The notes beneath the pieces were generated by a model, which saw only the letters and a program-made list of their open reading frames with translations, was not told where the DNA came from and made no database searches. DNA of 32,000 bases from Copranaerobaculum intestinale (lineage in GTDB: Bacteria; Bacillota_I; Bacilli_A; Erysipelotrichales; Erysipelotrichaceae): positions 690,001 through 722,000 of the forward strand of contig NZ_WUUQ01000002.1 in the NCBI RefSeq assembly GCF_009831105.1, in the 5' to 3' direction. Each line of letters begins with the position of its first letter. Within the stretch, counting starts at the first letter, position 1. Position numbers and translations under genes: made by a program. Of the stretch, positions 1 through 19,653 are shown one piece after another.

Positions 1-926
1 TGACCGACCAAAAGTGTTTTCACATCCGGATTCGCATCTACAAAATCAACCATTTCCTGTGTGATATCCGAACCGATATGGGGGCGGTCGGGATTTCCGA
101 TATATGTTATCTGATCATCATCGATGTAGTAAAGCATTAAATTATGCAAATAGCTGGAAAAGTTTGTATTAACTGCTTCAACATTTGGCATCGGCACCAT
201 AAATAGACTTTCTACATAAAGCGGCGTCTTTTCGTTTAGATATGTAATCCGCTGGTCGTCAAATACTGTGGGCATAGCTTCCCCTGCCGAATGAATCTGC
301 CTGCGGATTTGCCGCTCCCGCTCACTCATCACATAGCTTCCGCTTACGCGCATACTCGCTGATTCGATAAAGCTGGCTTCCTCCGAATGCCAGGCACTGC
401 CATACATTGACATAAGGTCATCAGCAAGTGTAACATCATAGAACGAAAAGTTTTGATATCCTTCTAATCCATCAAACATCGTTCCCTGAATATGAAGGCT
501 ATTCCCTTTCCCCTCACAAAGATGGCTATATGCTAGATTTACATTCGAATGAAGCAAGTGCAGCTCCATCGTTTCAATGAGGCTTCCGTTCTCCATGCGG
601 CTGCCAAGACATAATTCATATTCTTGTTGCTGCTGATCATCTGTAAATGTCATGATATATTTAGAATCACATGATGCTTTAAATACATGAACTCCGGTTT
701 GATCGAGAAGTACACCACCCAACAAACGTGAATGATTCAAAGATACAATCCGTCCACAGCGCTGATATGCCGGCTGATCCCAATAGAGGGAGTCCTCCTT
801 GACGATCGTTGATACCGGCATTTGATCGATATAAACCGTCTGATTGATACATGCCATTGCGAATGGAACATGCTCATCATCGGAATAGATCGTTAGGTCA
901 TAGCATACATTCGAATTCCATTTCAT
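1..926 (-). CDS. Hypothetical protein, C-terminally truncated by the window edge (at least 308 aa); translationally coupled partner of the Hint-domain gene
   Basis: Own minus-strand reading. ATG at 926-924 lies one nt after the TGA (930-928) of the upstream gene. The frame stays open to position 1 (MKWNSNVCYDLTIYSDDEHVPFAMACINQ...GNPDRPHIGSDITQEMVDFVDANPDVKTLLVG). It is missing from the ORF track only because no stop lies inside the window. No signal peptide, TM segment or motif I recognise. Confidence 0.6.
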   Translation of the reverse strand, partial: MKWNSNVCYDLTIYSDDEHVPFAMACINQTVYIDQMPVSTIVKEDSLYWDQPAYQRCGRIVSLNHSRLLGGVLLDQTGVHVFKASCDSKYIMTFTDDQQQQEYELCLGSRMENGSLIETMELHLLHSNVNLAYSHLCEGKGNSLHIQGTMFDGLEGYQNFSFYDVTLADDLMSMYGSAWHSEEASFIESASMRVSGSYVMSERERQIRRQIHSAGEAMPTVFDDQRITYLNEKTPLYVESLFMVPMPNVEAVNTNFSSYLHNLMLYYIDDDQITYIGNPDRPHIGSDITQEMVDFVDANPDVKTLLVG

Positions 927-927
927 A

Positions 928-2391
928 TCAGTTTTTCCCTTCCATTTCCACAAGTATTTCTGTGATCATATGCTTAGCGGATTCACCAAGCAGAGCTTCC
1001 CATAACGAAACCTGAGTGAGCAGCTTATCAATGACCGCATGTCGTTCAGCTTCTGCCAGATCAGCGATCCTTCGCTTCAAATAAGCAAGTGTAAGCTGTG
1101 GATATGCCAGCAGGCAGGGATAACCATTTGCATAGTAAGAATGAAAGCCGTCATAAACATGAAGATCGTAGCAACAGGCATGCTTTGTATTTTCTGTGAT
1201 GTGTATCCGTTCTACCACAACTTCATGCGGTTTCCCTTGATCATCAAGCTTGATAATACGATCACCTATTTTCAAAGTCTTTACTTGAAATTCCGGACAG
1301 ATCATATTGGTGGCTGCCGGCTGTGGTGCACACCAGCCCCGCTGGGTCATGATCGCATGATCCAAAGACATAAACGGAATATCCTCATTGACCGCGTATA
1401 GAAATGCAACCTGATGATTTTGGACCAATTCATCAGAAAGATAGGACTCACTTCCCTGTACATTTAATATCATATCATTCTTGCTTGTGCATTCGATTGG
1501 CACACATGTCCCATTCTTCAATCGTATTAGCGTACCAGCCAGCACACAGCCACCGCTTTCCTTTTTGTAACAGCCGTTGGCATCACCCGTGCTTTTGACC
1601 CACGCAACTGCTGCTTCACCATAAAAATGTTCATCATAGGCTCGCCTCGTGATAACTTCACCGCCGCCATATGCTTGATAAGCATCATGATGAACCGTTC
1701 TACAGCTTTCACTGTAGCGCTTGACATCTTGATTCATGGTTTTATAGATTGACATATCTTTTCCCAATTCATTGACAAATAATGTTGGCCAGTCATAATC
1801 CTTCAGATATTCATCCAGTTGATATACTTTACAAAAATTCGCATCGAACATTTTCCAATTTTCAAGAACTCGATCAGCAGCTGCATCATTGTGACAGTGC
1901 AGCATCAATAATAACACTTTAAAACGCCATATTTTGGTAATATCCGATTTATACATATTAAAAAATAAACGCTGCGAGATTGCAGCCTCAAACGACGGAT
2001 CAATTACATAAGGCTTCAAGCCGTAAGCATAATAGCCGGTCACGGCAATTTTTTGATAATACTGTTTGAAAACCAGTTCTTCGTTCTTACATTCACTGAA
2101 TTTTGCCTTGATATCCTCCACGCTGCAATTCGTGACAATTTTTTGCACTTCCTCATAACTGCTTTTGCTGATGAGATAAGCGGTATAACGCACCGCCAGT
2201 TTCACCAAATTCTGATAATCGCTGTCGGCGGCAGATGCATATGCAATGTCAACAGCTGTTCCGCTGCCATTATAAAAAGTACTGCCGGTGCTGCAGTCAA
2301 TGTATTTCAGAATGTATATCATTTCCTTACGAAATACATTTCCCAGTTCTCCTGCCCGCAAGAGTTGATTCATCAATTCACTCGTATTCAT
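928..2391 (-). CDS. Hint-domain (Hedgehog/intein-like, BIL/PT-HINT type) autoprocessing protein with an uncharacterised 281-aa N-terminal domain and a ~57-aa helical C-terminal tail
   Basis: 487-aa ORF with an AAGGAGGA SD just upstream of the ATG at 2391. Hint-like blocks: aa 280-290 GG|CVLAGTLIRL, aa 341-353 MSLDHAIMTQRGW, aa 407-425 CYDLHVYDGFHSYYANGYP. There is no terminal His-Asn plus Cys/Ser/Thr splice junction. No signal peptide or TM segment. Confidence 0.7.
   Translation of the reverse strand: MNTSELMNQLLRAGELGNVFRKEMIYILKYIDCSTGSTFYNGSGTAVDIAYASAADSDYQNLVKLAVRYTAYLISKSSYEEVQKIVTNCSVEDIKAKFSECKNEELVFKQYYQKIAVTGYYAYGLKPYVIDPSFEAAISQRLFFNMYKSDITKIWRFKVLLLMLHCHNDAAADRVLENWKMFDANFCKVYQLDEYLKDYDWPTLFVNELGKDMSIYKTMNQDVKRYSESCRTVHHDAYQAYGGGEVITRRAYDEHFYGEAAVAWVKSTGDANGCYKKESGGCVLAGTLIRLKNGTCVPIECTSKNDMILNVQGSESYLSDELVQNHQVAFLYAVNEDIPFMSLDHAIMTQRGWCAPQPAATNMICPEFQVKTLKIGDRIIKLDDQGKPHEVVVERIHITENTKHACCYDLHVYDGFHSYYANGYPCLLAYPQLTLAYLKRRIADLAEAERHAVIDKLLTQVSLWEALLGESAKHMITEILVEMEGKN
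1102..1548 (-). other. Hint domain segment (aa 282-430) of the 487-aa protein; candidate nucleophile Cys282 at codon 1548-1546
   Basis: Codon 1548-1546 is TGT (Cys), preceded by GGT GGC (Gly-Gly). This is the same Gly|Cys context as the Hedgehog autocleavage site. Domain borders were estimated by eye. Confidence 0.55.
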
Positions 2392-2485
2392 AAATCCTCC
2401 TTTTTGCTCATTTGAGTGCTGATGCTTATCGTTTGCTTTCGGCGCTCATCCGCCTTTTGCATAATTTTCCAGTTTCTTCCATTTC

Positions 2486-2516
2486 ATTATACATGCAAAT
2501 GTTGTAATTATGTTAA
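2486..2516 (-). promoter_or_regulatory. Candidate sigma-A promoter of the Hint-gene operon
   Basis: Minus strand has TATAAT (2491-2486) and TTAACA (2516-2511), but the 19-nt spacer is long. It lies between the pdp terminator and the Hint gene and would give a ~95-nt leader. Confidence 0.3.
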
Positions 2517-2520
2517 TAAT

Positions 2521-2555
2521 GAAAAAATTCTGTCAAAATTTAGACAGAATTTTTA
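2521..2555. terminator. Rho-independent terminator after pdp, with bidirectional hairpin geometry
   Basis: Stem ATTCTGTC (2527-2534) pairs with GACAGAAT (2543-2550) around an 8-nt loop. It is flanked by an A-run on one side and a T-run on the other, so a U-tract follows the hairpin on both strands. Confidence 0.75.
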
Positions 2556-10079: not shown

Positions 10080-11309
10080 TTATTGTTTGATTACATAGTA
10101 ATTGCGTTTTCCGCGCTTGATCAAGGTACAGCTATCAGCCAAGGCGTTTGCTTTTGTAACGATGAATTCTCCATCCTGTACCTTTATTCCGTTGACCTGA
10201 ATAGAACCCTGTGCTATCCATTCTCTGGCTTCACGCTTACTGGAGGCAATCTTTGCCTGTACCATCAGCTCCAGCAGTGATAACGCATCCGGTAGTTCAA
10301 TCTTTTCAAAATTGTTAAATGCATCCGCTGCTTCATCCTCACTCAACTCGAGAATATTACCTTTGAAGAATGCATCGGTTATTTTCAGTGCCTTATTCAG
10401 CTCGGCATCCCCATGCAGAAACAATACCACTTCGCGAGCCAATGCCTTTTGAGCTTCACGCTTATGCGGTTCACTTTTCACTTTTGCTTCCAGATCATCA
10501 ATCGTTTCTTTGTCTAAGAAAGTCAAACGCTTTAAGTAATCGATAACTTTTTCATCCTCGGAATTTACCAGAAACTGATACATTGCGTACGGTGAGGTCA
10601 TATTTCGATCAAGCCATACGGTTCCCGACTCACTCTTGCCGAATTTTGTACCGTCTGCTTTCGTGATCAATGGCATAGTCAAACCATAGCATTCAACATC
10701 GGCACCGTGCTTTTTACGAATCAGTTCCAGTCCTGAGGTGATATTCCCCCACTGATCCTGACCACCCAGCTGCAGAGTGCAGTTATGGGTTTCATATAGG
10801 TGCAAAAAATCAAGTGCCTGCAAAATCATATAAGAAAATTCGGTATAACTGATGCCGCTGTCAAGCCGGCGCTTGACTGTATCTTTATTGATCATATAGT
10901 TAATGTTGAAATGCTTGCCGTAGTCACGCAGGAAATCAATCACGGTGATATCCTTGGTCCAGTCAAGATTGTTGACCATCTCAAAACCAAAAATCGCATC
11001 AATCTGTTTACGCAGACAATCATAGTTATGCTGAAGCCGTTCCTTTGTCAGCATGGAACGTTCACCGGTCGCTTTCGGATCACCGATAAAACCGGTTGCC
11101 CCGCCGACCAGCATGATCGGGTGATGGCCATGCTCCTTTAAACGCTTTGCCATCAATAAAGATGACAGATGACCGATATGCAGACTTTCACCGGTTGGAT
11201 CTGTACCGATATAAAAAGTCAGTCCTCCCTCGTTCAGCTTTGCTTCCAGTTCCGGGCTAGTCATATCATTAATCAGACCGCGCCATTTTAATTCATCAAA
11301 CAATTTCAT
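10080..11309 (-). CDS. tyrS: Tyrosine--tRNA ligase
   Basis: 409 aa. Class I HIGH motif (LHIGHL), KFGKS (KMSKS-type) motif and a C-terminal S4 domain. AGGAGGAA SD. Confidence 0.95.
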   Translation of the reverse strand: MKLFDELKWRGLINDMTSPELEAKLNEGGLTFYIGTDPTGESLHIGHLSSLLMAKRLKEHGHHPIMLVGGATGFIGDPKATGERSMLTKERLQHNYDCLRKQIDAIFGFEMVNNLDWTKDITVIDFLRDYGKHFNINYMINKDTVKRRLDSGISYTEFSYMILQALDFLHLYETHNCTLQLGGQDQWGNITSGLELIRKKHGADVECYGLTMPLITKADGTKFGKSESGTVWLDRNMTSPYAMYQFLVNSEDEKVIDYLKRLTFLDKETIDDLEAKVKSEPHKREAQKALAREVVLFLHGDAELNKALKITDAFFKGNILELSEDEAADAFNNFEKIELPDALSLLELMVQAKIASSKREAREWIAQGSIQVNGIKVQDGEFIVTKANALADSCTLIKRGKRNYYVIKQ

Positions 11310-11327: not shown

Positions 11328-11547
11328 AAAAAAACGTCCTTATCCAAGGACGCTAAAGATAACGTGGTACCACCTTAGTTCATATCGCTTATGACATGCA
11401 CTCTCACGTTGATAACGGAAACCGCTCCGATACTGCTTTTGACAGTATGCTCCAAGGTGTATTCACTGAGCTTTGCGTATCGATTCTCACCAACCATCGA
11501 TTCTCTTGAACGAAAGGATTCAGCTACTCTTTCTTATCTTCACTTTA
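11328..11547 (-). promoter_or_regulatory. T-box leader (tRNA-Tyr sensing) with intrinsic terminator
   Basis: Minus strand shows an AGTA box, an AGAGA box, the specifier context GUGAA-UAC-A (UAC at 11461-11459), an F-box CCGTTA, and the T-box sequence AACTAAGGTGGTACCACGTT (11380-11361). The terminator is CGTCCTT-GGAT-AAGGACG plus T7 (11354-11328). Confidence 0.88.
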
Positions 11548-11553
11548 ATATCT

Positions 11554-13754: not shown

Positions 13755-15056
13755 CTATTGAAAACTTTTTACAATGTTTTTAAATTTATAAATATCCTTG
13801 CTGCTCATAAACAAATAAACAGCCGGACCGCGCTTCGCAAGCTCACTTGCGGCTTCTTCATCTTCCTGAATAACGCGGACATTTTCCATGCGGTCGGCAA
13901 GATCTTGGATCGTAATATCAATTCCCGCTTCCTTCGCAGCATTTTTTGGAAAATGACAAAGATAAACTTCATCCGCTTCATCAAATGCCTTGGCAAATTC
14001 ATCCATAAAATAAAATATACGGGAATAACGGTCCGGTTTAAAAACGGCAATTAATTTTTTATCCGGAAAGCGCGTCCTTGCTGCTTCAATCGTTAAGCGA
14101 ACCGCAGTTGGATGATGAGCATAATCATCAATATAAACATTATCGCCATTCACTTCAATATTGAAACGACGCTTTACTCCCGGAAAGCTGGCAAGTGCAT
14201 CCTGCAGCTGCTCAGCCGAAATACCCTCCATGATTCCAACCGCTATTGTTCCAAGAGAGTTCCATAGGAAAGGTTTCCCCACAAACGGAAGTTTAAAACT
14301 GCCAAAGAAAGAATCGTGGAGATAGACATCGTAGCTGGTTCCTTCGCTGTTTTCCACCACATTGCGCGCCTGTACATCATTTTGGTCGTGCAGTCCATAG
14401 AACAGATGATTCACATGCAGATTTAATGATCTGGTATTTTCTTCATCACCGAACAGCACGACTCCTTTTTTTACCTGATTGGCAAACTCTTCAAAAGCAC
14501 TGATATAATCTTCGATATCGCGGTAATAGTCAACATGATCCAGTTCAATATTTGTGATGATCGCATAATCCGGATGATAGGCTAGAAAATGCCGCTGATA
14601 CTCACAGGATTCCAATACAAAGTACCGGCTGTCCTTCGGCATTTCTCCGGTTCCGTCACCGATCAGATAACCGCTTGGGGCAATTTGCTGCATCACATGT
14701 GCCAGCAGCCCGGTCGTGGTTGTCTTGCCATGAGTGCCGGCTACGCTGATTGACGTATAGTCCCCAACCAGTTTACCCAAATATTCATGATAGCGGTAGC
14801 AGGTTACTGAGGGCATGGAACGCGCCTGCTTAACTTCTGGATGATCTTCACCAAATGCATTTCCAATAATGACTGTACTGTTTTCTTGAATATTCTTCGG
14901 ATCGAAAGGATAGATTGGAATATTTCGTTCTTCCAGCGGTTTCTGAGTAAAAATATATTTATCGATATCCGAACCGGTTACCGTTTCTCCCAAATCCGCA
15001 ACAATCTCTGCCAGAGATGCCATTCCGCTTCCCTTTATGCCAATAAAATGTATCAT
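13755..15056 (-). CDS. murC: UDP-N-acetylmuramate--L-alanine ligase
   Basis: 433 aa. MIHFIGIKGSGMASLAEI, GTHGKTTTTGL (P-loop), DDYAHHPT. Confidence 0.95.
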   Translation of the reverse strand: MIHFIGIKGSGMASLAEIVADLGETVTGSDIDKYIFTQKPLEERNIPIYPFDPKNIQENSTVIIGNAFGEDHPEVKQARSMPSVTCYRYHEYLGKLVGDYTSISVAGTHGKTTTTGLLAHVMQQIAPSGYLIGDGTGEMPKDSRYFVLESCEYQRHFLAYHPDYAIITNIELDHVDYYRDIEDYISAFEEFANQVKKGVVLFGDEENTRSLNLHVNHLFYGLHDQNDVQARNVVENSEGTSYDVYLHDSFFGSFKLPFVGKPFLWNSLGTIAVGIMEGISAEQLQDALASFPGVKRRFNIEVNGDNVYIDDYAHHPTAVRLTIEAARTRFPDKKLIAVFKPDRYSRIFYFMDEFAKAFDEADEVYLCHFPKNAAKEAGIDITIQDLADRMENVRVIQEDEEAASELAKRGPAVYLFMSSKDIYKFKNIVKSFQ

Positions 15057-15071
15057 GACCTTCTTCGCTCC

Positions 15072-15806
15072 TTATTCTTCTTCATCGATGGCAAATACAT
15101 GTTCTTCATCACTTGCTTTGATAGCTTCTTCTCCTCCGAACAAAGAGAACTGCATAACATCATCATTGTCATCGTCATCATCCTCCGCCAGCAGATCCTC
15201 CAGCGGCATATTTAATATATCCTCGTGAGATGGTTCATCCTTACTAACTGCTTCGCTATTATCTATGATGCTGCGCTTTTGAGCGGCGGTTACCGCCAAT
15301 TTTTCCTTCGCCTGATCTTCCATTTCCTCTAATTCGGTTGCACCGTACATAGGGGAAATGATCGTACCCAGAGGATTTTTTTTCTTCACCCGAACAACCG
15401 GAGAATCCTGATCCATTTCCTTTCGTGCCTCAATATCTTCCTTTGTGCCGAAAATCGGTGAAATTACCGGAGAAAACTCATAATCACGTTTGGTATCCAT
15501 CCGCGGTGTACTCGAAGCAACAGTACGAGGAGAATGTTTGGGCTCATCTAAATCAATAAATCGGTTTTTCTGTTTCCCATCCGATTCCGTACGTATTGAT
15601 TCATTTGTCGCCTGCGGTTTGCTTACCGGTCGTTTTGCCTTTACCGGTTCTTCCTTGACCGGCTTAGCCATTGAATTTTGCTTCATCGGTTTTTTCTCTT
15701 CTTTTTTCTCAAAGACAGGTGATGAAAGACTTACCGCTTCCAAAGGTTCTTCAATCAGTTCCTCTTCCTCTTCTTCAAATAAAAACTTTAGTATATTTTT
15801 AAACAT
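15072..15806 (-). CDS. Acidic, low-complexity (probably disordered) protein with duplicated [VI]ISP[IM][FY]G motif
   Basis: I place the start at ATG 15806 (MFKNILKFLFEEEEEE...), giving an 8-nt overlap with the ytpR stop. The ORF-track start 15860 lies inside ytpR. Acidic runs at both ends. Motifs VISPIFG (15467-15447) and IISPMYG (15362-15342). Confidence 0.6.
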   Translation of the reverse strand: MFKNILKFLFEEEEEELIEEPLEAVSLSSPVFEKKEEKKPMKQNSMAKPVKEEPVKAKRPVSKPQATNESIRTESDGKQKNRFIDLDEPKHSPRTVASSTPRMDTKRDYEFSPVISPIFGTKEDIEARKEMDQDSPVVRVKKKNPLGTIISPMYGATELEEMEDQAKEKLAVTAAQKRSIIDNSEAVSKDEPSHEDILNMPLEDLLAEDDDDDNDDVMQFSLFGGEEAIKASDEEHVFAIDEEE

Positions 15807-16431
15807 GGTGTTTCTCCCTTTCCGCAAAAAATGAAGCTCCGATCTGATAAGTGTCATCAAGAATCAAAAGGCCTTTTTGTTTTTCTTCAACTAAGCCAAG
15901 CTCCCATTCACTGCACAGCATACCATGCGATACAGCGCCTCTTAACTTACCGTCGCGAATCAATCGGCCATTCGGCATTACGGCATTATTTAAAGCCGCC
16001 GGTACATAAATTCCAGGTGCAGCATTGTGAGCACCGCAGACGATCTGAAGCACTTCCGCTCCGACATCAACCTGACAGATATGCAGATGATCGCTGTCCG
16101 GATGATCCTCCATACGGATAACATGCCCTACTACGATACGCGGGGTAAAGTCATGCTGAAGCGGTTCGAATCCCACCGCCTGCAAACCCCCATTCACGCT
16201 GGCAAGCAACTCCTCGCTCATCGGCAGATAGCCGTCCCTTCCCGGATATTCAGCTTGACTGATATTATAGCCGAGCAGTTCACCTTTCTTATTATACATA
16301 GCAGTAACATTGCCTATGGACTTTGTCGAAGCTACTGTATCTTCATCGTTTACCTTTATCAGTAACAGGCCGGGAAAAGCCCGATCATTTTTAAAAACGC
16401 GGATAATATCTTTACTTTTTTCAATACTCAT
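15799..16431 (-). CDS. ytpR: YtpR-like tRNA-binding-domain protein
   Basis: 210 aa. The C-terminal OB tRNA-binding domain HPDSDHLHICQVDVG...LQIVCGAHN...GKLRGAVSHGMLCS is like PheT-N/CsaA. Confidence 0.8.
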   Translation of the reverse strand: MSIEKSKDIIRVFKNDRAFPGLLLIKVNDEDTVASTKSIGNVTAMYNKKGELLGYNISQAEYPGRDGYLPMSEELLASVNGGLQAVGFEPLQHDFTPRIVVGHVIRMEDHPDSDHLHICQVDVGAEVLQIVCGAHNAAPGIYVPAALNNAVMPNGRLIRDGKLRGAVSHGMLCSEWELGLVEEKQKGLLILDDTYQIGASFFAEREKHHV

Positions 16432-16763
16432 TTTAAGCCTCCCAAAAACGCATCAATTTCCGCTTCGGTCTTTCGTTGTTTAGGAACAAAACGGCCGATC
16501 TCGGCTCCGTTTTTAAACGCGACAAAACTGGGAATTCCCAAAATCATCAAATCTACACACAAATCCATCCATTGATCACGATCCACATAGACAAAATGAT
16601 ACTGTGTATATTTCTTCAATAAATTTGGCAGAAATGGTTCCAAGAAACGACAATCCGGACACCAATCCGCCGAGAACGTGAAAACACTGATCGTCTCTCC
16701 TTGTTTAATTTCTTCAAATTGTTTCAATGATTCTAACTTTGGCATATCTGTTTTCATAATCAT
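16428..16763 (-). CDS. ytpP: Thioredoxin-family protein (YtpP-like)
   Basis: 111 aa with a WCPDC redox motif. Overlaps the ytpR start. Confidence 0.8.
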   Translation of the reverse strand: MIMKTDMPKLESLKQFEEIKQGETISVFTFSADWCPDCRFLEPFLPNLLKKYTQYHFVYVDRDQWMDLCVDLMILGIPSFVAFKNGAEIGRFVPKQRKTEAEIDAFLGGLK

Positions 16764-16771
16764 TTCCTCTC

Positions 16772-17503
16772 TTATTTCGGTGATTCCGTTTCCCGATAAT
16801 CCTGATCGATCAGAAAGCCTTCTTCGGCATAGCGGCCATTCAGATAATTCAAACTATCCTTACGGTTCTGCTCCGCTTTTTTCAGCGAAAAATCAGCGAC
16901 GATCTGTTTCTTATCATATTCAATAGACTGCATGATCTTCATCATTGCAGTTACTGCCGGCTTTATTTCTGCTGCGGGAATCAGCGCGTAGAAATCCACG
17001 ATTGTTCCATTTAAATGAAGCAGATACTGCTTTCCATCTAAGGTCTGAATAAAAAGCTCATAGGGAAAATATTGATTATTACCATTTTTATAAATTCCCT
17101 GATACTGCATATTTCCGCTTTTATCCTTTTTCATCGTAATGCTTTGTTTTTGCTGCTTGCTCACCGACGTAAGCGATAAGCTTTTTGATTTACTAGACTG
17201 TTCTTTTTTATCTAATTCTCCATTTAAATAAAAACGGTCAATGATGATTGCCGAAGCATTGAAATTCATGATAATTTCAAACCCATCCTTACGGAAAACC
17301 TCACTAAGCGGGGTACTTTCTTTTTTTCCTACCTCGCCGGGAAGATAGTAATTATAATATTTTTTTGTCATGGTTGCGGTAGGTCTGGCATGATTCTGCG
17401 TGCTCTTTTTCAGTAAACTGCGTATTGCATCGCTGTCAATATCCACGCGGGCACAGCCGCTTAGAAGCAATAGTACAGCACTGAGAAGCAAGGCTTTTTT
17501 CAT
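16772..17503 (-). CDS. Lipoprotein of unknown function
   Basis: MKKALLLSAVLLLLSG|CARVD lipobox. AAGGAGGGA SD. Confidence 0.7.
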   Translation of the reverse strand: MKKALLLSAVLLLLSGCARVDIDSDAIRSLLKKSTQNHARPTATMTKKYYNYYLPGEVGKKESTPLSEVFRKDGFEIIMNFNASAIIIDRFYLNGELDKKEQSSKSKSLSLTSVSKQQKQSITMKKDKSGNMQYQGIYKNGNNQYFPYELFIQTLDGKQYLLHLNGTIVDFYALIPAAEIKPAVTAMMKIMQSIEYDKKQIVADFSLKKAEQNRKDSLNYLNGRYAEEGFLIDQDYRETESPK

Positions 17504-17541
17504 GTCATCCCTCCTTTAAAAAACTTCATATATCTTGTTTT

Positions 17542-17550
17542 ATTATATCA
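17542..17550 (-). promoter_or_regulatory. Extended -10 promoter (TGATATAAT) of the lipoprotein-ytpP-ytpR-murC operon
   Basis: Minus strand reads AATGATATAATAAAACAAG...AAAGGAGGGATGACATG. Confidence 0.4.
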
Positions 17551-17583
17551 TTATTTTTTATGAAATAATCAATAAAATAACAA

Positions 17584-17603
17584 ATCTGCCTATTCAGGCA
17601 GAT
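17584..17603 (-). terminator. Terminator hairpin after trmB
   Basis: ATCTGCC (17584-17590) pairs with GGCAGAT (17597-17603) and overlaps the TAG stop. It is followed by TTGTTATTTTATT on the minus strand. Confidence 0.5.
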
Positions 17604-18249
17604 CATGATTGTGACTTGGCACATTCCATATTGCACGATAGATTGGCTGGCCTTTTTCCATAAAGCGACGTTCGTATTCTGTAATGACATCTTCATCATG
17701 TGGTTCACGGCGAAAATCAACGCTGACATCGTAAAGCTCCCAGCCCTCTGCCGCAAATTCCAGCAGACTGTATTCAAACAGCGCGCTGTTATCTGTTTTC
17801 ATAATAATTTGCCCCTTATCGCTTAAAATCCGCTCATATTTTTTCAGAAAACGGCTGTTGGACAAACGGCGCTTGGTCGTTCGTTTCTTGGGCCAGGGAT
17901 CCGAGAAATTCAGATGAATGGCATCTACTTCGCCCGTTTCAAACCAGGCGTCGATCTGCTCTGCATCACCCCATATAAAGCTCATAGCTTCACTGTGCAT
18001 CGATTCTTCAAACTTGCGGACGCTCAAGCCAGCCGCACTTTCATTTTTTTCGATACCGATCCAGCCGATCTGAGGATACAGAACTCCCATACCGACCCAG
18101 TAATCACCTTTGCCGCAGCCAATCTCAACATGAAGTGTTTCACAATTCAGCTGCTGTTTCCATCGTCCCGCAAGCTGAGCAGGTTCATGTGCAACCACCT
18201 CTGCCTGCATCAGCAGATTGTGAGCCCATTTCAGTTTACGCATTCTCAT
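17590..18249 (-). CDS. trmB: tRNA (guanine46-N7)-methyltransferase
   Basis: 219 aa. VEIGCGKGDY (SAM motif), NFSDPWPKKRTTKRRL. Confidence 0.9.
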   Translation of the reverse strand: MRMRKLKWAHNLLMQAEVVAHEPAQLAGRWKQQLNCETLHVEIGCGKGDYWVGMGVLYPQIGWIGIEKNESAAGLSVRKFEESMHSEAMSFIWGDAEQIDAWFETGEVDAIHLNFSDPWPKKRTTKRRLSNSRFLKKYERILSDKGQIIMKTDNSALFEYSLLEFAAEGWELYDVSVDFRREPHDEDVITEYERRFMEKGQPIYRAIWNVPSHNHDLPE

Positions 18250-18252
18250 CGA

Positions 18253-19653
18253 TTATGCACCTGCCAGTTTTTCCAAGGCTGCCGCATAAATACCAATAGA
18301 AAGCATCAATTCATCTAAATGAACGCCTTCGTCTTCCTGATGCGGTCCGCCAACAAAAATATCTGACGGCTTTGGATTTGGAAACTCCGGACCATACGCA
18401 ACAAAATTATCGAAATTACGGGCATATGTACCGCCGCCGATAGTCATGATCGGCGTGAATTGATCTTGACTGTAAGCACGATATGTATCCTCCAGTGTTT
18501 TCACCAGCTTTGAATTCGGATCGACATACAAAGGCGCCTTGTCATTGCCAAGAGTTAAATCAAATGTCAAATTCTCTGCATCCAGCTTATCACGAATACC
18601 TTTTAAGATCGTATCCTTATCCGTATCGTTTGGATAACGGATATCAATTACGACATGTATGCCATTCTCATCCAGCTCCACGACACCTGTATTCATGGTT
18701 AAAAAGCCCATAACGGCTCCTTCTTTATAAATATCGCATGGTTTCCCCTGCCAGTCGCAAAGGGTTTCATACAGACTATTGCATGTCTTATCATGAAAAG
18801 CCGTACCGACAAAATTCAGGATATGCAACGCCGCATTGACGCCTAGATACGGCATTGCCGCATGAGCTGCCTTTCCTTCCACAAAGATATGCGCACGCTC
18901 CTGATCAAGCTGTTCTACATGACCTTTAAGCTGATTCGTATCCAAATAGAATTGAAATACACTGTTCATATGAGCATTCCAGCCGCGGATGATCGCATCT
19001 GCTTTGCCAATGACAATATTGGGACGCTCACCGGCATGTATCGATTCAATTACCGTTTTTTGTTTGCCCTTCAAATCGACCACCAAAATACCTTTTTCTC
19101 CATAGATCAATGGAAAATTCGCATCGGGTACAAATCCCATGGTCGGAATCTCTGCATGTTCTTTATAGTAATGCATACAAGCCATTCCGCTTTCTTCATC
19201 ACAGCCGTAGATCAGCATAATCTTACGCTTCAAAGGAATCTTGCTGTCTTTGATCAGCTTCAACGCATAAAAGCCAGCCAGTCCCGGACCCTTGTCATCC
19301 AATACGCCGCGGCCAAACATAATGCCATTTTCAATTTCACCGCCCAGCGGATCTTTACTCCAGCCCTCACCAATCGGAACAATATCCAGATGTCCTAAGA
19401 CTCCGACGCTTTCTTCCCCTTCTCCAAATTCGATCACGCCGGCATAGCCATCGATATCCTTTACCGTAAAGCCTTCCCGGCGGCCCATTTCCAGCATCGT
19501 ATCCAGTGCATCCCGACAGCCTTTGCCAAACGGCATGCCTTTCGCTGCCTCTGCTTCATTCTTCAAAGAAGGAATACGGATCAGGGAACGCAGATCCTCT
19601 ATAAAAGATGTTTCATATTGTTTTGCTTCATCTAACCATTTCACAGTCATCAC
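18253..19653 (-). CDS. pepV: M20-family dipeptidase (PepV/Sapep-like)
   Basis: 466 aa. GHLDIVPIGEGWSKDP, GRGVLDDKGP, DEESG. The ORF-track start 19653 is a GTG; the ATG at 19650 is an equally plausible start. Confidence 0.85.
   Translation of the reverse strand: MMTVKWLDEAKQYETSFIEDLRSLIRIPSLKNEAEAAKGMPFGKGCRDALDTMLEMGRREGFTVKDIDGYAGVIEFGEGEESVGVLGHLDIVPIGEGWSKDPLGGEIENGIMFGRGVLDDKGPGLAGFYALKLIKDSKIPLKRKIMLIYGCDEESGMACMHYYKEHAEIPTMGFVPDANFPLIYGEKGILVVDLKGKQKTVIESIHAGERPNIVIGKADAIIRGWNAHMNSVFQFYLDTNQLKGHVEQLDQERAHIFVEGKAAHAAMPYLGVNAALHILNFVGTAFHDKTCNSLYETLCDWQGKPCDIYKEGAVMGFLTMNTGVVELDENGIHVVIDIRYPNDTDKDTILKGIRDKLDAENLTFDLTLGNDKAPLYVDPNSKLVKTLEDTYRAYSQDQFTPIMTIGGGTYARNFDNFVAYGPEFPNPKPSDIFVGGPHQEDEGVHLDELMLSIGIYAAALEKLAGA

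Follow-up and report, generated by a model that had tools for sequence, protein, structure and literature searches.

A putatively autocleaving Hint domain in one half of a predicted split membrane protein of Copranaerobaculum intestinale

Our analysis of a 32,000-nucleotide stretch of the Copranaerobaculum intestinale genome (NCBI RefSeq assembly GCF_009831105.1, contig NZ_WUUQ01000002.1, positions 690,001 to 722,000; hereafter the window) revealed a gene on the minus strand whose 487-amino-acid (aa) product contains a genuine Hint (Hedgehog/intein-like) fold at aa 282–429. The conserved residues of this domain, and the way in which it ends, suggest that it is of the kind that cleaves rather than splices. 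The gene had originally been predicted, from the sequence alone, to encode a free-standing cytoplasmic protein; our data indicate instead that it is coupled to a large partner gene, and that the two probably represent the split form of a single, membrane-anchored protein. The parts of the system within the window are as follows, in window coordinates.

928..2391, minus strand: Hint gene open reading frame (ORF), 487 aa, 55.5 kDa, ATG start, encoding the N domain, Hint domain and helical tail.
1549..2391, minus strand: N domain, aa 1–281, 32.3 kDa, modelled as all-alpha with a long beta-hairpin and a conserved helix.
1105..1548, minus strand: Hint domain, aa 282–429, 16.6 kDa, with block A CVLAGT, block B S342-L-D-H345 and a block F/G-like YDLHVYDGFHSYYANGYPCLLA, and without His-Asn.
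1546..1548, minus strand: codon of Cys282, the predicted nucleophile; the predicted scissile bond is Gly281–Cys282.
1357..1368, minus strand: block B (S/T)-x-x-H, S342–H345.
931..1104, minus strand: helical tail, aa 430–487, 58 aa, 6.6 kDa, opening with a near-invariant Y-P-x-x-T.
1..926, minus strand: first 308 codons of the partner gene, which runs past the start of the window; ATG at 926–924.

The product of the Hint gene was identical to WP_160625320.1 (C. intestinale, Erysipelotrichaceae), which is labelled a 'hypothetical protein' by NCBI and a 'Hint domain-containing protein' by UniRef. The Hint call itself is therefore already known, as an automatic UniRef annotation, and what is new is the split/fused membrane system, the novel N domain and the portable cassette formed by the Hint domain and its tail.

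The motifs on which the Hint assignment had first been based were located in the 487-aa ORF, namely GG↓C282VLAGT (the arrow marking the predicted scissile bond), MS342LDH345AIMT and CYDLHVYDGFHSYYANGYPC. The first AlphaFold model of the ORF, which was built from 8 homologues, predicted a Hint beta-core, with block values of the predicted local distance difference test (pLDDT) of 75–96 across aa 280–430. When the Hint model was compared to the PDB using Foldseek, the best match was Tetrahymena BIL2 (6y75; E 7e-8, template-modelling score 0.74), and further matches comprised the bacterial intein-like (BIL) domain of C. thermocellum, the gp41-1 and Prp8 inteins, Vint and Hedgehog (1at0), the top ranks being occupied by Hint domains only. 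A family profile of the Hint domain plus tail, generated from 20 sequences, matched BIL2 over the whole domain (E 1.3e-4) and the PI-SceI, VMA and Prp8 inteins at block A. Furthermore, an exhaustive profile search of 1.84 billion representatives, which yielded 2109 matches at E≤1e-3 and 678 cluster representatives at E≤1e-10, aligned aa ~290–440 to tandem-Hint proteins with E values down to 8e-84, and these relatives carry strong Pfam Hint matches (Hom_end_hint at 4e-46, for example). The same Hom_end_hint model was matched by 7 of 29 family members, albeit below its curated cut-off (best E 1e-5). Taken together, the structural comparison, the family profile and the exhaustive search identify aa 282–429 as a genuine Hint fold, as originally predicted, and the beta-fold, the N-terminal Cys nucleophile and the block B S-x-x-H place it within the Hint superfamily.

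Single-sequence scans of the ORF alone returned nothing significant in Pfam, NCBIfam, PADLOC, PHROGs or the PDB and no match to a PT-HINT model, the best Pfam match being a cross-match to AXH (E 0.04). The AXH model (PF08517; ataxin-1/HBP1) was also seen to score on bona fide tandem-Hint proteins, at E values as low as 9e-28, and the Hint family profile matched ataxin-1 AXH structures (4j2j and 1oa8) at E 4e-4, which suggests that AXH is a Hint-derived fold. The lone weak Pfam match of the ORF is accounted for by this cross-matching, as it is a general property of Hint sequences of this kind.

The catalytic residues were surveyed in an alignment of 207 Hint instances, drawn from the 154 best matches. 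Cys1 was present in 196 of 197 aligned instances and the block B His in 199 of 202, with Thr (103 instances) or Ser (89 instances) three residues ahead of this His. The residue preceding Cys1 was mostly Gly or Ser, the query having GG↓C282. At the opposite end of the domain, the family consensus past the last Hint strand was ANG-Y-x-C-L-L-N-Y-P-E-I-T, and the query reads C426-L-L-A429 followed by Y430-P, so that the terminal His-Asn is missing, as had been noted previously. An invariant Tyr430-Pro431 directly follows the Hint domain, leaving no Cys, Ser or Thr at the +1 position. Asn occupied position 429 in 105 of 125 relatives, where the query has Ala; this position is taken by A, S, D, T, G, I or P in approximately 15 % of relatives, all of which retain Cys1. 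Given the lack of His-Asn, the lack of a +1 nucleophile and the presence of Ala429, the only chemistry open to the query would be N-terminal cleavage, and its Hint domain is probably of the cleaving (BIL-B/Hog-like) type and not of the splicing type, which agrees with the original prediction.

Further indication came from the proteins in which these residues have been lost. Among 120 Hint+tail proteins, only two begin at the Hint domain (P0063, 1148 aa, and P0118, 1123 aa), and both are without Cys1, which is replaced by Gly in one and absent in the other; both also run on into the partner region, and in P0118 the block B His is additionally replaced by Gln. In this sample of two, the loss of Cys1 fits the residues being kept to cut off an N-terminal segment.

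The partner gene begins 1 nt past the TGA stop of the Hint gene (930–928), in a TGA-T-ATG arrangement of translational coupling. On contigs of the same species (L012:11466–13976) the full partner is 836 aa in length, with three to four hydrophobic/transmembrane (TM) helices near its C-terminus (~689–785), and ends in a conserved cytoplasmic motif, ..CVPFV..L..P. It had no match in Pfam, NCBIfam, PADLOC, PHROGs or the PDB by sequence, and a candidate identity as a degenerate dynamin-like protein was rejected at an hhalign probability of 0.1 %. In each of the eight distinct split-type contexts examined, a homologous partner gene overlapped or directly adjoined the Hint gene. These contexts came from Erysipelotrichaceae, Blautia and Desulfovibrionaceae genomes and from unassigned metagenome contigs, and the partner ranged from 812 to 861 aa. 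The linkage to the downstream gene is therefore conserved across this set, as listed here (Hint gene product plus partner).

537 + 840 aa, metagenome contig.
502 + 826 aa, Blautia.
516 + 839 aa and 537 + 812 aa, Desulfovibrionaceae.
517 + 857 aa, 517 + 861 aa and 508 + 836 aa, further split pairs.
487 + 836 aa, Copranaerobaculum intestinale.

In addition to this pairing, a profile of the partner aligned over its full length with the last ~880 aa in 42 of the 154 best relatives (E down to 6e-85), these being fused proteins of ~1300–1500 aa with the N domain, Hint domain and tail at their N-terminus. The 120 Hint+tail proteins included 84 with this N domain, 40 that were fused and 64 that ended ≤35 aa past the tail. 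The pairing, together with the end-to-end fusion in relatives, indicates that the window holds the split form of a single protein with the order N domain, Hint domain, tail, beta-rich region, helical region and TM helices. The reading of the Hint gene product as a free-standing cytoplasmic protein is not upheld by these data. The related statement that it has no delivery module holds in part: the ORF itself has no signal peptide, hydrophobic N-terminus or TM segment, but the partner to which it is coupled brings the C-terminal TM helices.

The N domain was modelled with confidence (AF2, aa 1–300, 29-sequence alignment; pLDDT 87.5, predicted template-modelling score 0.81) as all-helical, plus a long beta-hairpin (aa 230–257) and a conserved helix, YGE..V..W (W264). 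Foldseek detected no fold match to this model in the PDB (best E 0.66) or among the viral models of BFVD, and sequence profile searches of the PDB gave no match outside the Hint region. With Pfam likewise silent, aa 1–281 remains as unrecognizable as first described, and the model suggests a novel fold. Conservation across 91 N-domain sequences was restricted to hydrophobic or structural positions (F39, F40, F143, W179, V223, G258 and W264), with no conserved polar residues in what is a fast-evolving domain. This pattern makes an enzymatic 'toxin' cargo unlikely, and a role in binding or sensing, or as a pro-domain, is more probable for the N domain than an enzymatic one.

The 58-aa tail, for which no known match was found, in agreement with its earlier description as unrecognizable, was modelled as four short helices. 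It is conserved jointly with the Hint domain, always accompanies this Hint subtype and is part of the Hint cassette. The tail is hydrophilic, with a mean hydrophobicity of about −0.1 at its most amphipathic window, and its amphipathicity is modest (0.50 vs 0.40 for shuffles); no sequence similarity to the sterol recognition region (SRR) of Hedgehog could be detected.

Several other proteins carry the same Hint domain and tail. Sequences 42–46 % identical to it end proteins of ~920–1010 aa that have Sel1-like repeats and a Tyr/Ser-rich linker, and their genes close operons that also encode two or three dynamin-like GTPases but not the 840-aa partner. Three such operons, each with a Sel1-SG↓C-Hint-tail protein of ~940–960 aa, are located as follows.

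L006:691–8946, dynamin-like GTPase operon.
L010:2586–10627, dynamin-like GTPase operon.
L022:992–7556, dynamin-like GTPase operon.

A further protein, P0099 (579 aa), consists of an AIG1/GIMAP-type GTPase, a K/E/Q-rich coiled coil and a glycine linker that leads to GG↓CF, followed by the Hint domain and tail; in this protein, the autoprocessing cassette occupies the usual position of the C-terminal anchor of an immunity-associated-type GTPase. The remaining Hint+tail members have an N-terminal TM helix or cargos without recognized identity. The Hint domain and tail thus form a portable C-terminal cassette. In eukaryotes, the Hog layout combines a Hint domain with an SRR or adduct recognition region (ARR) extension (PMC2362128). 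The presence of many cargos alongside one C-terminal Hint domain with a helical extension formally corresponds to this eukaryotic Hog pattern.

On balance, we consider it moderately probable that the Hint domain acts by a Cys282-mediated N–S acyl shift followed by hydrolysis at Gly281–Cys282. In this view, the ORF provides the N-terminal half of a membrane-anchored system that is split over two genes. After folding, Cys282 would attack the carbonyl of Gly281, and the thioester formed by this N-to-S acyl shift would then be resolved, most simply by water. This would set free the 32.3-kDa N domain, whereas a 23.2-kDa Hint-tail fragment would stay bound to the membrane-anchored partner, to which it is covalently joined in the fused relatives. 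At the cytoplasmic face of the membrane, autoprocessing would in this way detach an N domain that had until then been tethered. Regarding a biological role, both conflict or defence and membrane-associated signalling are possible. Several points weigh against this proposal. The ORF on its own misses every curated Hint model, and we infer the cleavage chemistry wholly from conserved residues. The presence of Asn429 in 105 of 125 relatives hints that many of these may also cut or splice C-terminally, and the freeing of the N domain could be incidental to another reaction, for example transfer or ligation. Finally, the genomic contexts are mostly housekeeping and a conflict role is weakly supported.

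A specific nucleophile other than water might alternatively resolve the thioester at Gly281; candidates are membrane lipids, small molecules and amine or hydroxyl groups of the partner. The N domain would then become covalently tagged or anchored C-terminally, in the manner of Hog. The layout is that of Hog, with a variable cargo, a Gly-Cys junction, a Hint domain and a ~55-aa helical C-terminal extension (PMC2362128). The cassette recurs on unrelated cargos, as with the Sel1-repeat proteins and the AIG1/GIMAP-type GTPase; all of its contexts are membrane-related, and BIL2, the closest solved relative, belongs to a locus for which conjugation of ubiquitin-like domains has been proposed. However, the Hedgehog SRR is hydrophobic and membrane-seeking (PMC7242414), properties that the hydrophilic and modestly amphipathic tail does not share, and the absence of both SRR similarity and a signal peptide makes such a transfer unlikely in our estimation. 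The more general proposition that the Hint domain and tail are a bacterial counterpart of the Hog cassette, a portable module that cuts itself off and thereby transfers the C-termini of cargos (this N domain, the Sel1-repeat proteins and the AIG1-type GTPase among them) to a nucleophile other than water at the membrane, for instance a lipid or the partner, is by analogy conceivable, yet we regard it as speculative and rather doubtful. A purely structural or interacting Hint domain, in a protein that stays full length, was also considered: Hint-like folds without activity are known, cross-matches connect this family with the AXH model and with ataxin-1 structures, and the two members without Cys1 are otherwise conserved. 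This explanation is improbable in view of the near-invariance of Cys1 and of the (S/T)xxH, and of a −1 position that is mostly Gly or Ser, in a family whose other parts diverge to 12–30 % identity; moreover, the Cys is lost only where the N-terminal segment is absent.

Catalysis at both ends of the domain, involving Cys282 and an Asn at position 429, would excise the Hint domain and ligate the N domain to the tail and partner, as reported for BILs that lack a +1 nucleophile. BIL domains can cleave at either end (PMC7765530). In the 105 of 125 relatives with Asn directly past the last Hint strand, which is then followed by the invariant Tyr-Pro, such a reaction is possible, but not in the query, which has Ala429. 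Relatives without Asn all keep Cys1, there is no penultimate His and a splicing reaction in the split form would yield no more than an N domain carrying the 58-aa tail, and we consider this explanation quite improbable. Bacterial HINT autopeptidases are best known from polymorphic toxins (PMC3482391), and the mobile and patchily distributed nature of the cassette would suit a PT-HINT domain that releases a C-terminal toxin. The system has, however, no secretion or trafficking domain, repeats or signal peptide, and no PT-HINT model was matched; the Hint domain is followed by the conserved 58-aa tail or a conserved ~880-aa membrane protein rather than by a toxin tip, and no small immunity gene lies downstream, nor was any conserved small downstream gene seen in the contexts examined. 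The architecture of the proteins thus appears to have largely refuted the toxin interpretation, which we judge very unlikely. A canonical intein or mini-intein interrupting a host gene is the least probable of the explanations, in spite of the Hint fold and the intein structures among the Foldseek matches, as His-Asn, a +1 Cys, Ser or Thr and a homing endonuclease are all lacking, the flanks do not belong to a conserved housekeeping protein or to a known family, and the 154 best relatives included no Hint-less allele, whether of the N domain joined to the tail or of the N domain joined to the partner. The initial impression that this Hint domain resides in neither an obvious polymorphic toxin nor a canonical intein is borne out, as the defining features of both are absent.

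In comparison to known systems, the query would work most like a B-type BIL or a Hog Hint domain. B-type BILs were first reported from hypervariable parts of proteins, most of them secreted or at the cell surface (Amitai et al. 2003, as summarized in PMC7765530). The motif pattern of the query is similar, with an N-terminal Cys, blocks A, B and F, no His-Asn, a predicted N-terminal cut and a fast-evolving host protein, whereas it differs in having no export signal, in always carrying the 58-aa extension and in being coupled or fused to a large membrane-anchored protein. The likeness to Hog appears to extend to the cargo, the Gly-Cys junction, the Hint domain with a C-terminal helical extension of ~55–60 aa, the variety of unrelated cargos and the cleaving rather than splicing type. 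The query nevertheless differs from Hog in being bacterial and in the tail and signal peptide characteristics described above, and its structural match to Hedgehog 1at0 (E 1e-3) was weaker than those to BIL2 and the mini-inteins. BIL2 (Tetrahymena BUBL1; 6y75 and 6tmm) was both the best structural and the best whole-domain profile match to the query, although it is eukaryotic, flanks ubiquitin-like domains, ends in Asn143 and is only ~15 % identical to the query. PT-HINT domains (PF07591) are found near the C-terminus of an exported toxin, ahead of a variable toxin domain and with an immunity gene next to it (PMC3482391). The query resembles these by analogy, as a bacterial and presumably autoproteolytic HINT that would separate the parts of a large protein, but the exported toxin, the variable toxin domain and the immunity gene are all absent from its system. 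The TcdA/TcdB and MARTX toxins have an N-terminal effector, an internal cysteine-protease domain and a membrane-inserting delivery region. An analogous order may be seen in the fused ~1400-aa relatives, with a cargo, a putative autoprotease and a long region ending in hydrophobic helices. The two differ in fold (Hint vs the caspase-like cysteine-protease domain) and have no sequence or profile similarity, there is no evidence of export, and the system is split in the window.

Genome matches to the family were found in Erysipelotrichaceae, Blautia, Desulfovibrionaceae and Oscillospiraceae, and the family spans the Firmicutes and Desulfobacterota and, judged by sequence character, the Proteobacteria. 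A word-indexed homologue search returned 5–8 relatives and a metagenome pattern scan one locus; the 678 cluster representatives of the exhaustive search include unrelated Hint proteins. An apparent match on an Aeromonas 'plasmid' was rejected as a different, secreted Hint protein that ends in VHN and does not belong to this family. No relative was present in the viral contigs and phage genomes searched.

The neighbourhoods were of housekeeping character in the window and in most of the other contexts examined. In the same species, the genes beyond the partner encode an arginase, a PBP5-type carboxypeptidase and spoIIAA/AB/sigF. One context adjoins an ISL3 transposase. In one metagenomic context (L015:1168–6471 and 14495–19429), the gene pair lies between RADAR-like genes (RdrA, 5e-13; RdrB/adenosine deaminase, 2e-25) and genes for an HD protein and a HerA ATPase, a setting that resembles a defence island. 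In a Blautia-like contig (L003:10688–20719), the partner is truncated at 459 aa and followed by ParB, ArdA, TraG/VirD4, TrbL and methylase genes, apparently through the insertion of a conjugative element; the otherwise syntenic L002 has an intact partner gene (826 aa). On the Vibrio coralliilyticus plasmid p337 (L020:8947–11565), a lone partner-type gene of 872 aa lies immediately downstream of the remnant of an IS3 transposase, with genes for DUF3696, a DEAD-box helicase and DUF6602 nearby, and the Hint-bearing half may have been lost here to the insertion sequence. The PADLOC 2.0 defence models gave no match for the query, the partner or one fused relative. The differing neighbourhoods fit a self-contained, mobile cassette of two genes that would move between phyla. 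The idea of a conflict or defence module finds weak support in the RADAR/HerA setting and the lone partner on the Vibrio plasmid.

To our knowledge, bacterial Hint domains outside inteins come almost only from exported proteins and toxins. The active-looking Hint domain described here sits in a non-exported and apparently membrane-tethered system. Neither the N domain nor the 836-aa partner, the other large components of this system, has a match in Pfam, NCBIfam, PADLOC, PHROGs or PDB sequences. Our literature search found no description of this family, of a Hint domain in anti-phage defence or of a bacterial Hog, although the library was incomplete and this is no proof of absence. The family is not small, the 678 representatives including unrelated Hint proteins, and the Hint domain with its tail is reused on GTPase-related, membrane-associated systems. 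If cleavage were confirmed, it would represent a new autoprocessing step able to regulate, mature or anchor such systems, and the C282A substitution would offer a simple handle on a gene pair of gut bacteria. The cassette may also serve protein engineering as an N-cleaving Hint domain with its own accessory helix bundle. Were the doubtful Hog-counterpart proposition true, it would imply enzyme-free C-terminal anchoring or ligation in bacteria and could provide a clue to the origin of Hedgehog-type autoprocessing.

The base composition of the Hint gene did not differ from that of the remaining window. Its expression signals, all on the minus strand, are given below.

2396–2401, minus strand: Shine–Dalgarno sequence AGGAGG, 4 nt ahead of the ATG.
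2486–2491, minus strand: perfect TATAAT, 95 nt ahead of the Hint gene ATG.
2536..2507, minus strand: promoter-like TTGACA-18-CATAAT, a consensus match only.
2554..2523, minus strand: 12-bp hairpin with a T-run behind it, which probably terminates transcription of the pyrimidine-nucleoside phosphorylase (pdp) gene upstream.

The hairpin of the pdp terminator overlaps the −35 element of the promoter-like site. The Hint gene had been suggested to have its own promoter after a strong terminator, and both the promoter-like site, as a consensus match, and the terminator hairpin are present upstream. The leader of ~95–115 nt had no match in Rfam. Elsewhere in the window, an ordinary T-box leader (11343–11549, minus strand; 123.5 bits) was observed upstream of the tyrosyl-tRNA synthetase gene (10080–11309).

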